A stretch of 64,000 nucleotides of DNA from Candidatus Limnocylindrus sp. (GCA_040397215.1 JBBAWK010000002.1); one strand, 5' to 3'; counted from the first letter of the stretch, positions 3,534 to 36,064 are shown. Numbers and translations are program-made. Notes: a model not told the origin generated them from the sequence alone.

Positions 3534-3715
3534 GGGGCCTCCTCACGGTTGGTGCGACGATGAGCGTCGCCGTTGCATGGAAGTGTAGGGGAGGGGGCGT
3601 GCGGGTGCCTTGGCGCTGGGGAGGGGCTGGCTGCTATTCTGCGACCAATAGCGCTTGACACTCACGGGCAACTGCTTTGCCCGATCACGAAATCACAGAG
3701 GAGGTCTCCCCACCG

Positions 3716-5629
3716 ATGGCTTCCGGGAGCGTTGCTGAGATCAAGAGCCGACTCGCCGTCGCCGACGTCGTTGGCGAGACGGTCGTGCTGCGCAAAGCGG
3801 GCGCTGCCTTCAAGGGCCTCTGCCCGTTTCATGGCGAGAAGACCCCCTCATTCGTTGTCACACCTGCCCGTGAAACCTGGAAGTGCTTCGGCTGCGGCAA
3901 GGGGGGCGACATCTTCACCTTCGTCATGGAACGCGACAGCCTGCCGTTCGGCGAAGCGTTGACCCAACTCGCCGCCAAGGCTGGCGTGACGATCGACGAT
4001 CGCAGTCGCGCCGAGGATGCGCGCAAGGTGCGACTCCGCGATGTGCTTGAGGGTGCAGTGAGCTTCTATCACGCCATCCTCACCGTGCACGAGCTCGGAC
4101 GCCCTGCACTCGACTACTTGCATTCGCGTGGATTCACCGACGAGACGATCGAGGCGCAGCGACTCGGCTGGTCACCAGATTCTTGGGACGCCTGCTCGAA
4201 GGCGCTCGCTGCGAAGCGCGGTGCAACACCCGCCGAGCTTGCCGCCGTCGGCCTCACCACCGAACGCGATGGTGGTCGTGGCGCCTATGACCGCTTTCGC
4301 GCGCGCGTGATCTTTCCGATCCGCGACGCGAATGGGAAGATAACCGGACTCGGTGGTCGCCTCCTCCCCGAAGATGACAAGCGCGGCGACCGCGGTCCGA
4401 AGTATTTAAACAGCGCAGCGACGGAACTCTTCGACAAGTCGCGCACCCTCTATCTCATCGATAAGGCGAAGCCCGCGATGCGCAGGAGCGGCACCGCGGT
4501 GCTCGTTGAGGGATATACCGACGCACTGATGGCGCATCAGTCTGGCTTCACAAACGTTGTCGCGAGCATGGGAACGGCACTGACTCCTGCGCAGGTCGCG
4601 CTCCTCCTGCGCTACGGATCGAAGATTCTCTTGGCGTACGACGTTGATGCTGCTGGAGCGAAGGCGGGCGCATTCGGAGCTACCGAACTGCTGCGACTCG
4701 TGACCGAGCTTGGTAGCGCCGATGGCGGACCATCGCTCGTTGATGTGGGGATCGTGCGCCTCCCTGACGGGAAAGATCCCGACGAAGTCGTTCGCGACCA
4801 ACCAGAAGCGTGGCGCGCCGCAACGGAGCAGCCGATTCCGGTGGTGGAGTACCTCATCGACACCCACGCTCAGGCACATGACTTAAAAGACCTTGGCGGT
4901 CGCAAGCGTGCTATCGACGGGATCAAGCCAATCCTTCGTAGCCTTCGTGACCCAATTGTTCGCGATGGCTACATCTCTGCGGCTGCACGGCGCATCGGCG
5001 TCGACGAGAACTCAATTCGTGAGGCGATGATCCAGCGCGGCGCTGAGACGGCCCGCGCAGAGAGCCGCATCTCGGCGGATAGCGTGCGCGCCGCCGACGC
5101 GGACGGTGACATCGACTCCATCCTTGCCGGGGTAACGCCCCCCGAGGCCGAGCTGCTCCGACTCCTTATTGCGGCGCCTGCCGAGCGGCTCCGTGTGCGC
5201 GACGTGCTTGTCGACCAGCTCTTCACGAGCGGATTGGCGCGCTCACTCTGGCGCGGACTCCGTGCGGCACTCGACAGTGCGCTGGAGGCGGGGGCGGCCG
5301 TTGATGCTCTGGAACGGCTACCCGTTACGATTGAGGGCGAAGAGCGCCGTCTGGCCCAGGCACTCTCCGAACGCCTTGGGGCCACCGTTGAGTTCACGCG
5401 AATCCGGATCGGTATTGATCAGACCGTCTTGCGGCTGGAGGCTGATCGCCTTGAAGAGGCGATGGCCTGGTCGCGCAGTGAGATTGCCGAGGCGGAGCGA
5501 GAGGGCGATGCCGCTCGTGTTCGGGCCCTCATGGAGGCAGAGCGAGATCTAGGACAAATGCGGAAGGCGCTCGACCGACGCTTCTTGGCGTCGGGAGTGC
5601 TCACAGCGGCAAAGGGGGGGAGCAAGTGA
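3716..5629 (+). CDS. dnaG: DNA primase
   Basis: It has a CHC2 zinc finger ([11 protein letters not shown]...CFGCG), a TOPRIM region and a C-terminal helical domain. An AGGAGG RBS lies 12 nt upstream of the ATG at 3716; the track ORF begins at TTG 3677. Confidence 0.85.
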
Positions 5630-7770
5630 CGAAGGCGAAGCAGGTAAGCAAGGTGACCGTGGGCACGCCCGTAAAGGCGACGCCAGTGAAGGCCGCTGCA
5701 AAGCCCGTCGCTAAGGTCGCCCCAAAGCCCGTCGTAAAGCCGACGGCGAAGGTCGCCGCGAAGCCCGCCGCCAAGCCGGTTGCAAAGCGCGGAACTCTCA
5801 CAACTTCAAAGCCCGCTGCAAAGTCAGTCGCCAAGGCCGCCCCAAAGCCTGCTGCAAAACCGGCTCCGAAGAAGTCCGTGCCAACAAAGGCCGTCGCGAA
5901 GAGTTCAATCAAGCCAGCGGCGAAAAAAACCGCTGCGCCGATCGCCAAGGCAAAGCCGGTCGCTAAGGCTGCGCCAGCGAATGGGAAGAAGCCCGTTGTC
6001 GTAGTCGTTGCGAAGGGCAGGACCGTTGCACGCGCTTCACTCGCGGCATCACCTGCGTCAACTGCGAAGTCGAAGGGCGAAAAGCCAAAGGCAGAGAAGA
6101 CTAAGAGCGAGAAGCTGGCACCTGCCGGAGCAGCCGCCCCCGCAAAGGCGCAGGGAAAACTCGCAAAGGGGAAGGCGGCGGCCGGCCCAACTGCAAAGCT
6201 TGACGGCGTCGCTGAGCCTGGCGCGGCCGATCTCGCCGAGATTGAGGTTGATGGCGTCGAGATGCTCAGCCCAGAGGCGGCCGCTGCACTCCTTGTTGCT
6301 GAGGTTGCCCCAGAGGCACCGAAGCCTGAAGTTGCTGAGCCAGTTGCGGAGTCAACAGGCGTTGACGATCCGGTGCGCATGTACCTCAAGGAGATTGGTC
6401 GCGTTGGGCTACTCACCGCCGAAGAGGAGGTCGTTCTCGCCAAGATGATTGAGCTCGGCGAGCAGATGGCCGATGAGCCGTGGAAGGCTGTCTACAACCT
6501 GCATCAGTGGACCTATCACGAGACGGAACTCAAGACGCGCAAGAAGAAGGAGTGGTACCGACTTGATCCGGCGCTCGCTGCGAAGGCGCACGCCACCAAT
6601 GCCGAAGCGATCGGTGCGTGGGTTAAGGGGCATCACGTGCACGAGTGCAAGGTCACCGGATTTGATAAGGCCTCGCGAGAAGTGGCGGGCGAGACCGCCA
6701 AGAAGAATCTGATGATTGCGAAGAGCCTCGTGAAGTCGTTCAATGAGCCGAACCGACGAAACCTTGCAGCAAAGACGGCGGAGATGATCGACTTTGCCTT
6801 CCAAACAGTGGGAACTGGCGACATGGAGAGCCGTGACAACGGTGTGCTCCAGAAGCTCTTCCTCTGGGCCCGCGACGAGATCGCCTGGCCAGCGCTGGAG
6901 ACCTGGATTGCCCAAGGGAAGCACATCGCCACGGATGGGAAGGACTGGATCCGCGAGGCGGGTTGGGATCCCGAGAATCCAGCACTCGGCAAGCTGCGCG
7001 GACGTGAAGGCTACGTCGTGCAGCTCGGCTGGCGCGGACGCGAGGAGCTGACCAAGGCGAACCTGCGCCTCGTCGTCTCCATCGCCAAGAAGTACATCGG
7101 TCGCGGCATGAGCTTCTTAGACCTGATCCAGGAGGGGAACATCGGACTGATTCGCGCCGTTGAGAAGTTTGAGTACATCAAGGGCTTCAAGTTCTCGACC
7201 TATGCAACGTGGTGGATCCGCCAGGCGATCACGCGAGCGATCGCCGATCAGGCGCGAACGATCCGCATCCCGGTGCATATGTATGAGCAGCTGAATCGCC
7301 TCACCCGCGTCCAGCGCCAGCTCTTCCAGGAGCTTGGCCGCGAAGCGACGGATGATGAGATCGCCAAGGAGCTCACCAAGGTCACCGAGTCGGAGGTGAC
7401 CGCAGAGCGCGTGCGCGAGATGCGCAAGGTGAGCCAGGAGCCGGTCTCCCTCGAGACGCCGATCGGCGAAGAGGAGGACAGCCATCTCGGCGACTTCATC
7501 GAGGACAAGTCGGCGAAGAAGCCGGACGAGGCGGCGAACAGCCAGCTGCTCTCCGAGCAGATCGTCGCCACGCTGGAGTCGCTCAGCCTCCGCGAGCAGC
7601 GGGTGCTCAAGTTGCGCTTCGGCCTGGAGGATGGGCGGCAGCGCACCCTGGAGGAGGTCGGAGCGGAGTTCAACGTGACGCGCGAACGCATCCGCCAGAT
7701 CGAGGCGAAGGCGCTGCGCAAGCTGCGCCACCCATCGCGAGCACGCAAGCTGCGCGACTACCTCGACTAG
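5626..7770 (+). CDS. rpoD: primary RNA polymerase sigma-70 factor with a ~200-aa Lys/Ala/Pro-repeat N-terminal extension
   Basis: Regions 1.2, 2 ([19 protein letters not shown]...[15 protein letters not shown]), 3 and 4 are conserved. The GTG start overlaps the dnaG stop (GTGA). The N-terminus is made of AKP(V/A)AK repeats. Confidence 0.9.
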
Positions 7771-7842: not shown

Positions 7843-7917
7843 TCCGGCGTAGCTCAGTGGTAGAGCGGGCGGCTGTTAACCGCCATGTCGTAGGTTCGAA
7901 TCCTACCGCCGGAGCCA
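7843..7917 (+). tRNA. tRNA-Asn (anticodon GTT)
   Basis: It folds as a cloverleaf: acceptor TCCGGCG/CGCCGGA, D-arm GCTC-AGTGGTA-GAGC, anticodon arm GGCGG-CTGTTAA-CCGCC, T-arm GTAGG-TTCGAAT-CCTAC. The 3' CCA is encoded. Confidence 0.85.
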
Positions 7918-8324: not shown

Positions 8325-9368
8325 CTACTCCGACTTCTGGCGCAAGATCGCGGCGAGGTTATCGAGCTTATTGCGCGCGATCAGCAGCCACTTCGCCATG
8401 TTGGCGCGATCCGTTTCACTGAGTGGAGTCCCCAACTCTGGCTGATCAATCTCATGCAGAACCAACGCGAGCGCGTCGATTGAACTTGCGAGGCTGTCGC
8501 GGGCGTTAGTTAACGCCGCGTCTGACGCTGACGCGATGGCTGCCGCTTGTGTGGAGACTGGCGCCGAGGCGCTCGCCACGGGCTGCTTCGCCGCGGCAAT
8601 GATCGGCCGCTCGTTTGGTGAGGCAAACGGGAAGATCGACGGTGCGACGACCTCTGGTGCGGGGGATGGCTCGGGGCGTTCGTCGCGGACAACACTCTTG
8701 AGGCGGGCGAGGGAGAGCTCGCCGCGCATCACCTGTGCCGCCAGTTCACTTCGTCGTGCCGGATCGGTGATCTTCATCAACTCATAGGCGTGGCTGATCG
8801 TGTCGGAGCGCTCCGCGACGAGGGCGCGGATGTCGGCCGGTGCATGCATCAGGCGGAGCCGATTTTCGACGTAGCCCTTGTCCTTGCCGATGCGTTCGGC
8901 CAGCTTGCGAATGCTGTAACCGAGTTCGCTCGTCATGCGCGCGAAGATCGCCGCCTCATCGAGTGGGGAGAGATCCTCACGCTGCAGGTTCTCGATGATT
9001 GCAACCTCAAGGGCGATCTCATCGCTCATCGCCTCAACGATTGCAGGAATCATCGGCAGTCCGAGTGAGAGCACGGCGCGCCAGCGACGTTCGCCGGCGA
9101 CAATCTCGTAGGAGCCCGGCTCGGTTGGGCGCACGATGATTGGCTGCAGCACCCCATGCTCACGAATGCTGGCGGTGAGCTCATCGATCGCCAGTGGAGG
9201 GAGTGCGAGGCGGGGCTGCTTAGCGTTGACCGTCACGCGATCGACCGCGATCTGTCGCACCGAGCGGTCACCGTGGGCGCCCTCGGGTGGGAGGAGCGAG
9301 AGAATGGCGTCGTCAAACTCCTGCCCGCTGGCCTCGGAGCCGCCCGTTGGCTGCTTCCCTTTCGGCAT
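8325..9368 (-). CDS. ParB/Spo0J-family CTPase-type DNA-binding protein (orphan, no parA partner)
   Basis: It has the ParB N-terminal domain with the GERRWRA CTP-binding motif and an HTH region ([22 protein letters not shown]). The start MPKGKQ sits behind an AGAGGAGG RBS; the track ORF over-extends the N-terminus. Confidence 0.75.
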
Positions 9369-9493
9369 GCTGCCTCCTCTGTTCGCTTCGTGCGCCTTGC
9401 GGCTCACCGTTTCGCCGCATCGTACCGCGCGAGCGGTGTGGGAGAATCGTGCGGAGCGAAGTGCCCGGAACGGGCCAGGTAAGGGAGGTGAGC

Positions 9494-11095
9494 GTGGGTA
9501 AGGAGCAGGGGCGCGACGCCGCGCGCCACACGACCACCTCAGGCGCACCCCTTGATGCCACCTACGGTCCAAACCCATCCCGCGACGCCGCCGCAGAGAT
9601 CGGTGCACCAGGCTACTTCCCGTACACGCGCGGCGTGCAAGAGACGATGTACCGCGGCCGCCTCTGGACGATGCGCCAGTACGCCGGCTTCTCGACGGCA
9701 CGCGAATCCAACGAGCGATATCGCTACCTCCTGGAGCAGGGCCAAACGGGACTCTCGGTCGCCTTCGATCTACCGACGCAGATGGGCTACGACTCCGACG
9801 CGCCAGAGGCGGAGGGCGAGGTCGGTCGCGTGGGTGTTGCGATCGACTCCATCGCCGACATGGAGACGCTCTTCCAGGGGATCCCACTCGACAAGGTCTC
9901 AACCTCGATGACGATCAACTCCACCGCGCCGATCCTGCTGGCGCTCTACGTAGCGATTGCCGAGCGACAGGGGGTGTCACGCGCCGAGCTCTCGGGAACG
10001 ACGCAGAACGATCTCCTCAAGGAGTACATCGCTCGCGGAACCTACATCTTCCCGCCCGAGCCATCGCTGCGACTGATCACTGACGTCTTTGAGTGGTGCG
10101 CCACCGAGCTGCCGAAGTGGAACACGATCAGCATCTCGGGTTATCACATGCGCGAGGCGGGGGCGACCGCCGCGCAAGAGCTTGCCTTCACCTTCGCCGA
10201 CGCGATCGCCTATGTCGACGCAGCGATCGCACGTGGCCTTGAGGTTGACGCCATTGCGCCGCGCCTCTCCTTCTTCTTCGCCGCCTGGACCGACATCCTC
10301 GAAGAGGTGGCGAAGTTCCGCGCCGCACGCCGAATCTGGGCACGCATCATGCGCGATCGCTACGGCGCAACGAGTGAGAAGTCGCTCCTCTGTCGCTTCC
10401 ATGTGCAGACCGCCGGCTCCACCCTCACGGCACAGTCCATTGACAACAATGTTGTTCGCGCTGCGTATCAAGCCCTCGCTGCCGTGCTTGGCGGCGCGCA
10501 GAGCCTGCATGTCAACGGCAAAGATGAGGCCCTCGCCCTCCCGACCGAAGCGTCGGCGCGCCTCGCCCTGCGCACGCAGCAGGTGCTCGCCCACGAGGCT
10601 GGCGTCGCAGGAACCGTTGATCCGCTCGGTGGCAGCTACGCCGTGGAGGCGCTCACCGATCAGGTTGAGCGCGACGCCCTCGCCCTCATCGCCGAGGTTG
10701 ACCGTCTCGGCGGCATGGTCGCCGCGGTTGCCGCAGGCTTCCCGCAACGCGCGATTCAAGATTCGGCGTACGCCTATCAACGAGAAATTGAGAGCGGCGA
10801 GCGCGTGATCGTGGGCGTGAATCGATTCGTCGACGAAGAGGTCGAGACGCCAGCCATTGCCCGCATTGACCCGGCCCGCGAGCGGGAGCAGGTTGCTGAG
10901 CTCCAGGCATTCCGCGCGGGGCGTGATGCCGCGACCGCAACCGCCGCCATCGCCGAGGTGATCGCCACGGCGAAAGGGAGCGCCAACATGATGCCGCCGA
11001 TCCTGGCCGCCGTGAAGGCCGGCTGCACCGTTGGTGAGATCAGCGCCGCCCTACGCAGCGTGTGGGGCGAGCACCGCGAGGCGATGGTCCTATGA
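9494..11095 (+). CDS. methylmalonyl-CoA mutase, catalytic (large-subunit N-terminal) domain; the B12-binding domain is not fused
   Basis: The MCM substrate-binding TIM-barrel signatures are present ([26 protein letters not shown]). It is 534 aa and ends before the cobalamin-binding domain. The GTG start follows a GGAGG RBS. Confidence 0.8.
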
Positions 11096-18402: not shown

Positions 18403-18748
18403 CCGGCGAGATGGCCGGACGGCCGCGTCGCCCCTTCGGGGGCGTCGAGGAAAGTCCGGGCTCCGAGGTGTAAAGGCAGCGGGTAACGCCCGTCCGCCGT
18501 AAGGCGCGGACTAGTGCCACAGAGACGAGTCCACCGCAGAGCTTCGGCTCAGCGGTGGGGTGAAACGCGGCAAACTCTGCCTGGAGCAAGGTCGAATAGG
18601 GAGGCATTCCAGTCGCTTGCGGCTGGACCGGCGCACCGCCGGGACCTCCGGGTTGACCGCTAGAGCCCCCGAGCAATCGGGGGTCGAGATGGATGGCCGT
18701 CCCCCCGCAAGGGGGACAGAACCCGGCTTACAGGCCATCTCGCCGGAC
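18403..18748 (+). ncRNA. rnpB: RNase P RNA, bacterial type A
   Basis: The universally conserved blocks are present: GAGGAAAGTCCGGGCTCC (P4 5' strand), GGTAACGCC, AGTGCCACAGAGA, GGGTGAAA, GGAGCAAGGTCGAATAGGG and ACAGAACCCGGCTTA (P4 3' strand). The P1 helix pairs CGGCGAGATGGCC with GGCCATCTCGCCG, and P3 is a UUCG hairpin. Confidence 0.9.
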
Positions 18749-35942: not shown

Positions 35943-36018
<76 letters not shown>

Positions 36019-36064
36019 ACCCAAGTTGTATAGTCCGAGCGTGAGCCCACTAACGCCGAATCCG

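Follow-up and report, generated by a model that had tools for sequence, protein, structure and literature searches.

The function of lysine-rich extensions on primary sigma factors is poorly understood, also in Mycobacterium tuberculosis. Lysine repeats have been noted in HrdB of Streptomyces and RpoD of Bordetella pertussis and are enriched in DNA-binding proteins; those of TopA bind DNA and stabilise the enzyme-DNA complex (PMC5714199). In M. tuberculosis, the disordered extension of sigma-A, which comprises 205 amino acids, increases steady-state transcription about 100-fold and alters the response to CarD and RbpA (PMC11888270). Deletion of 42, 92 or 132 residues of this extension is tolerated, while deletion of 179 residues is lethal. 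Sigma-A without its first 132, basic residues shows normal promoter binding, transcription and complementation, the acidic residues 132-179 are essential, and phosphorylation of the disordered region at S57, T69 and T71 has a regulatory effect (PMC10011835). Related repeats occur in proteins other than sigma factors: KPAA peptides and the C-terminal domain of AlgP bind DNA in vitro, AlgP, which has 25 KPAA and 7 KPVA repeats, is found at polyphosphate granules (PMC9239181), and the C-terminal domain of PhaF with its 22 KPAA repeats binds RNA via its lysines (PMC12818456). Here, we analysed a stretch of 64,000 nucleotides from Candidatus Limnocylindrus sp. (GCA_040397215.1, JBBAWK010000002.1; 63.7% GC; hereafter the window), in which rpoD, the gene for the primary sigma factor, encodes a long lysine-rich N-terminal tail followed by an acidic module. 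Candidatus Limnocylindrus is an uncultured freshwater bacterium of the class Limnocylindria (Chloroflexota). We found no description of a lysine-repeat tail on RpoD in the literature on Chloroflexota, and the tail is a new example from this phylum of an already known feature of primary sigma factors.

An initial annotation of the window, made from the DNA alone, had placed a Lys/Ala/Pro-repeat N-terminus of about 200 residues on the sigma factor, and such a block is indeed present. Residues 1-191 contain 43 lysines and 3 arginines next to only 3 acidic residues (28% Ala, 23% Lys, 15% Pro); their net charge is about +41, and the net charge per residue is +0.23. The first 120 residues (28% Ala, 23% Lys, 15% Pro, 12% Val; net charge +29) lack Asp and Glu altogether. 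Residues 121-200 carry a further +12, which gives +41 for residues 1-200 together, and are followed by an acidic stretch with a charge of -12 at residues 201-250. Autocorrelation of the lysine positions, judged against 5000 shuffles, peaked at lags of 4, 8 and 12 residues (z = 5.2, 4.9 and 4.0) with depletion at other lags, and 20 of 45 gaps between lysines are exactly four residues long. The repeat unit of the tail is a tetrapeptide, xxxK, corresponding to 12 nucleotides and represented by four copies of KPAA, three copies of KPVA and other variants, and not the hexapeptide AKP(V/A)AK or PKPAAK that had been proposed at first. DNA repeats of 15-21 nucleotides, the second part of that proposal, gave way to a similar correction: Tandem Repeats Finder reported weak arrays only, at 5665-5777, with periods of 12, 24 and 15 nucleotides, scores of 44-71 and 62-85% match, and no repeats of 18-21 nucleotides in the tail of the window protein. 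Regular repeats are limited to about the first 115 residues, whereas residues 121-191 are basic yet irregular. No other open reading frame (ORF) within the window carries a similar lysine-rich tail. The composition fits a polyelectrolyte coil, and AlphaFold2, run on an alignment of 39 sequences, modelled residues 1-215 without secondary structure at a predicted local distance difference test (pLDDT) score of about 30, in a model that was poor as a whole (mean pLDDT 44.7).

Comparison with 15 species-level relatives indicates that translation starts at the GTG at 5626 and includes this tail. Both the GTG start and the Shine-Dalgarno site are kept in these relatives, the N-terminal sequence (V/M)TKAKQVSKV is conserved, and 13 of the 15 genomes have the same 25 nucleotides 5' of the start as the window, with one to three base changes in L011 and L017. 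In the nucleotide alignment of the tail region, all 53 of 53 distinct indel blocks are multiples of three. Across the 16 genomes, the rpoD frame contains no in-frame stop, compared to 1-14 stops in the other forward frames, and differences from the window are concentrated at third codon positions (937 versus 486 and 325). Translation of the tail is supported because the start and Shine-Dalgarno site are conserved, every indel stays in frame and none of the 16 genomes has an in-frame stop. The comparison revealed neither a start downstream of the repeats nor repeats that are absent or frame-shifted in relatives, the two outcomes that the initial annotation had named as contradicting it.

Shorter N-termini were present in 8 of the 120 closest database proteins. 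One of these, P0087 (660 amino acids), was considered as a tail-less variant and rejected as a scaffold gap artefact, with the tail continuing in frame 5' of the called start. In the corresponding assembly (L046, 1295-1393), a run of N falls exactly at the junction between the 3' end of dnaG and the 5' end of rpoD and leads to the truncated 660-residue call. Judging by this one traced example, the short gene calls appear to be assembly artefacts, and the repeat region seems to hamper both assembly and gene calling.

Selection on the N-terminus was estimated from the ratio of non-synonymous to synonymous substitution rates (dN/dS) against the 15 relatives. The ratio was about 0.24 for residues 1-200 (a value that depends on the alignment of repeats), about 0.03 for the acidic segment 201-247, also about 0.03 for region 1.2 together with the non-conserved region (NCR), and about 0.015 for the sigma core. 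The repeat number had been singled out initially for comparison among related genomes. The N-terminus is complete in 33 Limnocylindria genomes, all of which have the basic tail, with lengths ranging from 112 to 285 amino acids. Despite this 2.5-fold length range, net charge per residue remained between 0.18 and 0.24, the tails contained a median of 46 Lys, 1 Arg and 2 acidic residues, and the four-residue lysine spacing was retained. A change from Lys to Glu takes a single transition, one that is favoured by high GC content. Because acidic residues and arginine are nearly excluded in a GC-rich genome, these patterns argue for selection for a lysine polycation and not for drift. As judged from this comparison, the selected traits are charge density and lysine periodicity rather than the sequence itself. 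Indeed, the tail sequence turns over fast and only clade-specific islands such as KRGSLATS persist. A motif of the form (K/R)x(G/A)(S/T)LA(T/V)(S/T) recurs in the tail at positions that differ by clade (L020, L021, L029, L030, L032) and may represent a linear motif or a phosphorylation site.

Tail length changes in whole blocks of 12, 24, 36, 48 and 60 nucleotides, besides blocks of 15, 27 and 39 nucleotides. Fresh tandem duplications are present in L021 (a 72-nucleotide unit in 2.9 copies at 96% identity and a 15-nucleotide unit in 2.9 copies at 100% identity; 3900-4111 and 4316-4359), and L003 contains units of 48 and 60 nucleotides in 2.2 copies (2110-2289). These duplications provide direct evidence of the route by which the tail grows: on an evolutionary time scale, repeat blocks are duplicated in tandem or lost. 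The earlier suggestion of slippage holds as far as whole-block length variation and duplications in relatives are concerned, whereas the repeats in the window are too degenerate for slippage at high frequency. On the same grounds, namely the low match and scores of the arrays given above, a hypermutable simple-sequence contingency locus was rejected; the fresh duplications in relatives reflect evolutionary turnover, not a switch.

Homology searches with the tail alone did not lead to any family. The tail matched no entry in Pfam or NCBIfam (HC2, PF07382, included), and phmmer against PDB sequences returned nothing below E = 0.03; full-length M. tuberculosis sigma-A and HrdB are both present among these sequences, and neither was returned at E ≤ 10. 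A search among 5.8 billion proteins gave a single match, because low-complexity candidates swamp the word index. In the complete window protein, Pfam detected sigma domains only and no HU (Bac_DNA_binding) fold. The initial description of the tail as H1-, HU- or Hc1-like is therefore borne out in composition and periodicity and unsupported as to ancestry, given that there is no Pfam, NCBIfam or PDB match and no HU fold. The likeness to H1, HU, Hc1 and AlgP tails is, at the sequence level, one of composition and periodicity only, for which homology cannot be shown, and the resemblance to the actinobacterial sigma extensions is analogous, not demonstrably homologous. Another lysine-tailed sigma factor, P0171, showed a sub-threshold Pfam match to HC2, the chlamydial histone H1-like protein, at residues 16-100 (E = 3e-7, 31 bits versus a cut-off of 40).

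In order to place the tail among other sigma factors, we took the best 149 representatives at 50% identity from 1.84 billion proteins and surveyed the 117 in which region 1.2 could be identified and the N-terminus comprised at least 60 residues. In 26 of these 117 nearest representatives the N-terminus contains a strongly basic block, defined as any 60 consecutive residues with a net charge of at least +10; with few exceptions, an acidic stretch lies between this block and region 1.2. Named examples include SigA of Anaerovibrio lipolyticus and one metagenome-assembled RpoD from Clostridia/Bacilli. Lysine-rich disordered extensions are thus common, at about one in five of the nearest sigma representatives; named primary sigma factors with such extensions come from Actinobacteria, Firmicutes and Proteobacteria besides Chloroflexota.

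The part of the N-terminal extension under strong constraint is the acidic module at residues 192-247, which had escaped the initial annotation together with the precedents for such extensions on primary sigma factors in the literature. The module is nearly invariant in every clade, even where overall identity falls to about 60%, and lies directly before region 1.2, the usual site of region 1.1; a helix is predicted at residues 216-225 in the poor AlphaFold2 model mentioned above. Pfam did not match region 1.1 (PF03979) in the window protein at E ≤ 0.1, and a local hidden Markov model (HMM) of region 1.1, made from 20 canonical sequences, matched none of 121 proteins from Limnocylindria, even with the threshold relaxed to E ≤ 10. 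The same local HMM identified a canonical region 1.1 behind the tail in 18 of the 26 other lysine-tailed sigma representatives, including P0127. A degenerate region 1.1 as the origin of the acidic module was considered and found unsupported, with hhalign giving 2.8% probability over 12 residues aligned to 'Y..L...GIEVV'. Profile searches thus indicate that the lineage no longer detectably has a folded region 1.1, with the acidic module in its place.

The gene is embedded in a conserved context (Table 1). Its GTG start overlaps the stop codon of dnaG (GTGA), which lies directly upstream and whose identity is backed by six primase domains in Pfam and NCBIfam scans. This dnaG-rpoD junction, known from the synteny of the macromolecular synthesis operon, is also found in the 15 relatives. 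Sigma regions 1.2, 2 (residues 477-545), 3 and 4 are all present and in order, with Pfam E values from 2e-14 to 4e-24 across PF00140, PF04542, PF04539 and PF04545. The NCBIfam model RpoD_Cterm (TIGR02393) scored 381.2 bits against a curated cut-off of 354, and the full-length equivalog sigma models of NCBIfam scored below their own cut-offs because the N-terminus and the NCR are unusual. Owing to the dnaG-rpoD synteny and the RpoD_Cterm score above cut-off, the rpoD product is assigned as a primary-type sigma factor in the classical dnaG-rpoD arrangement, in line with the housekeeping sigma-70 named initially. Its 120 closest homologues share 69-94% identity, and most of them comprise 700-754 amino acids and have the same N-terminus.

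Table 1 Features of the dnaG-rpoD locus, in coordinates of the window.
Feature	Position	Strand	Basis
dnaG (DNA primase; context gene)	3677..5629	+	ORF list; Pfam Zn_ribbon_DnaG, DNAG_N, Toprim, DnaB_bind
Shine-Dalgarno-like GGGGGGGAG	5614..5622	+	Sequence; 3 nucleotides 5' of the GTG start
rpoD/sigA, primary (group 1) sigma-70, 714 amino acids	5626..7770	+	ORF list, Pfam, NCBIfam
Basic low-complexity tail, residues 1-191	5626..6198	+	Composition, lysine periodicity
Most regular tetrapeptide run, residues 23-54	5692..5787	+	Lysine spacing; overlapped by DNA arrays
Conserved island KRGTLTTSK inside the tail, residues 54-62	5785..5811	+	KRGSLATS in the close clade
Second tetrapeptide run, residues 63-83	5812..5874	+	Lysine spacing
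RASLAAS, related to KRGTLTTSK, residues 136-142	6031-6051	+	Sequence
Conserved acidic module, residues 192-247 (...ESTGVD)	6199..6366	+	dN/dS; conserved across Limnocylindria clades
Sigma region 1.2, residues 248-280	6367..6465	+	Pfam PF00140, E = 2e-14
Sigma NCR, lineage-specific, residues 281-470	6466..7035	+	Gap between Pfam domains
Sigma regions 2, 3 and 4 (promoter-recognition core)	7036..7767	+	PF04542, PF04539, PF04545; TIGR02393
Antisense shadow ORF, 280 amino acids, Gly/Ala/Phe-rich, not a gene	5601..6443	-	Shared third positions, broken in relatives

The long insert before the sigma core that had been noticed initially corresponds to the NCR, which spans about 190 amino acids between regions 1.2 and 2 and is under a constraint comparable to that of the core. 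It is shared with P0124 (60% identity), which has neither a tail nor a region 1.1, and with P0127 (48% identity), which combines a lysine tail, a canonical region 1.1 and the same NCR. Scans of the rpoD region for promoters, terminators and Rfam families gave nothing relevant. Elsewhere in the window, a tRNA-Asn(GTT) gene is located 73 nucleotides past the rpoD stop (7843-7917, plus strand) and a tRNA-Val(CAC) gene further downstream (35943-36019, plus strand), and a full-length RNase P RNA of the bacterial class A was identified at 18407-18746 (plus strand; 231.7 bits). An ORF of 525 amino acids on the minus strand (8325-9902) looks ParB-like by eye in its C-terminal two thirds; its first ~170 residues are rich in Arg, Ser and Pro and probably precede the real start.

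The ORF antisense to the tail had been dismissed as spurious in the initial annotation, and the relatives bear this out. It is open in 14 of the 16 genomes and interrupted in L013 and L017, while the sense frame is never interrupted. The antisense frame stays open because only Tyr, His or Gln codons could give rise to a stop in it, and these are nearly absent from the tail. Its dN/dS of 0.30 mirrors the 0.24 of the sense frame, and its frame is kept through all indels. Since the third codon positions of the two frames coincide, substitution periodicity and frame-preserving indels do not separate sense from antisense. The stops in L013 and L017, the conserved rpoD start and the continuity with the sigma core identify the antisense ORF as a compositional shadow of rpoD. 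An ORF of this kind looks conserved and is a trap for conservation-based gene finders.

Taken together, we favour, with about even confidence, a bipartite N-terminus in which a polycationic disordered tail (residues 1-191) contacts DNA in a modulatory role and an acidic module (residues 192-247) replaces region 1.1. The acidic module would do a region-1.1-type job inside RNA polymerase, either as an occupant of the DNA channel or as an initiation module, in the way the acidic residues 132-179 of M. tuberculosis sigma-A seem to act. The lysine tail would project from the enzyme and make sequence-independent electrostatic contacts with promoter-near DNA or the nucleoid, and these contacts could raise the local concentration and rebinding of sigma or holoenzyme and tune the kinetics of initiation and recycling. 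Such a tail would be modulatory and not essential, like the actinobacterial sigma-A/HrdB extensions and the tails of TopA, HupS/HupB, AlgP and PhaF. Tethering to DNA is a plausible hypothesis, and the division of labour between the basic and the acidic part is supported by a selection pattern that parallels the deletion phenotypes in M. tuberculosis.

Several points weigh against this reading. Intrinsic disorder of the tail is predicted mainly from its composition, with an AlphaFold2 model that is poor throughout, and the dN/dS of the repeat region hinges on an uncertain alignment. The tail has no detectable homology to characterised DNA-binding tails, and we found no direct DNA-binding test of any sigma tail in the literature. 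Judging by M. tuberculosis sigma-A, any tether to DNA would be dispensable (PMC10011835). Moreover, DNA is by analogy not the sole candidate ligand, because the KPAA repeats of PhaF bind RNA (PMC12818456) and those of AlgP are associated with granules of polyphosphate (PMC9239181).

If the tail does not act on nucleic acid, it may act within the protein or the enzyme, as an entropic or electrostatic regulator masking the acidic module or further acidic surfaces of sigma or RNA polymerase, or as a platform for post-translational modification such as phosphorylation or acetylation. We regard this as unlikely, even though the basic block (+41) directly adjoins the conserved acidic module (-12), islands of the (K/R)xGSLATS type recur within the tail, and the disordered region of M. 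tuberculosis sigma-A is both phosphorylated at S57, T69 and T71 (PMC10011835) and able to alter the response to CarD and RbpA (PMC11888270). A charge of +41 versus -12 is far in excess of what neutralising the acidic module needs, and the Ser/Thr islands are not positionally conserved across clades. Somewhat more doubtful is binding of the tail to another polyanion, either RNA (nascent transcripts or specific mRNAs) or polyphosphate, whose accumulation during starvation would sequester or relocate sigma. The repeat type, with lysine at every fourth residue and KPAA and KPVA units, is the same as in PhaF, whose KPAA domain binds RNA (PMC12818456), and in AlgP, which is found at polyphosphate granules (PMC9239181). 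However, neither the window nor the relatives contain a pointer to RNA or polyphosphate, the sigma context puts the tail beside DNA, and four perfect KPAA units in the window compare with 22-25 in PhaF and AlgP, to which there is no sequence homology.

We consider it improbable that the tail is a functionless, tolerated low-complexity expansion that arose by replication slippage in a GC-rich gene. Low sequence conservation, frequent whole-block indels and fresh duplications in relatives would all be expected of such an expansion, and M. tuberculosis sigma-A tolerates the loss of its basic part (PMC10011835). Neutrality is difficult to reconcile with a tail in each of the 33 genomes whose N-terminus is complete, a charge density that is constant over the 2.5-fold length range, a dN/dS of ~0.24, the near exclusion of Asp and Glu in spite of the GC-favoured single transition from Lys to Glu, and a K:R ratio of ~46:1 in a genome of 64% GC; nor does any other protein of the 64-kb window carry such a tail. 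A more far-reaching idea, which we likewise treat as a long shot, is that the bipartite disordered module has replaced region 1.1 and that its KPAA-type tail serves as a sensor of polyanions (polyphosphate or RNA as well as DNA), so that the state of polyphosphate or the nucleoid would set how much housekeeping sigma factor is available or where it is located. If this were true, global transcription control would be built into sigma itself, and the constant charge density would be the selected parameter. Finally, there is next to no likelihood that the tail is untranslated and that the true start lies downstream, for instance at Met213 or Met252: GTG starts are weaker than ATG starts, but this alternative is already contradicted by the comparative data, in which the GTG, Shine-Dalgarno site and N-terminal sequence are all conserved, the frame is kept through every indel without stops, the third-position excess reveals purifying selection, and Met252 falls within region 1.2.

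On its own, the finding opens no new mechanism, and the organism is uncultured; its main value lies in a comparative dataset and an annotation caveat. The Limnocylindria set constitutes a natural experiment across 33 species, in which length and sequence of the tail vary while charge density, lysine spacing and the acidic module stay constant, and it thereby shows experimenters which parameters to vary. As to annotation, the tail region breaks assemblies and yields truncated gene calls, and the tail is invisible to trypsin-based proteomics because it contains a lysine every four residues.

Compared with Pseudomonas AlgP and PhaF and the tails of linker histone H1, the Limnocylindria tail has the same lysine at every fourth residue with Pro, Ala or Val in between (KPAA, KPVA), is likewise predicted to be disordered and polycationic, and likewise differs in repeat number among strains or species (PMC9239181, PMC12818456). 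In contrast, those proteins are associated with the nucleoid or with granules and carry their tails at the C-terminus, whereas the tail described here is N-terminal on a sigma factor, and it is much more degenerate, with four perfect KPAA and three KPVA units and no profile matches. With actinobacterial TopA and HupS/HupB and with B. pertussis RpoD, it shares a K(1-2)-(neutral)3-5 pattern on proteins of DNA transactions in GC-rich bacteria (PMC5714199), where the function of the lysine repeats has been shown for TopA and HU-type proteins only and not for any sigma factor. Sigma-A of M. tuberculosis and HrdB of Streptomyces have in common with the Limnocylindria protein an extension of 200-odd residues before region 1.2, composed of a Lys/Ala-rich basic part and then an acidic part, and the absence of a canonical folded region 1.1. 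They differ in that the sigma factor described here comes from Chloroflexota (class Limnocylindria), sequence similarity is undetectable, the Limnocylindria tail contains a regular Pro-containing tetrapeptide, and actinobacterial sigma factors lack the NCR insert of 190 amino acids found in Limnocylindria sigma. For sigma-A, the relaxed selection on the basic part and the strict selection on the acidic part observed here mirror the deletion data from M. tuberculosis (PMC10011835). The acidic module, in turn, resembles the canonical region 1.1 (PF03979) in its acidic character and in occupying the same position before region 1.2.

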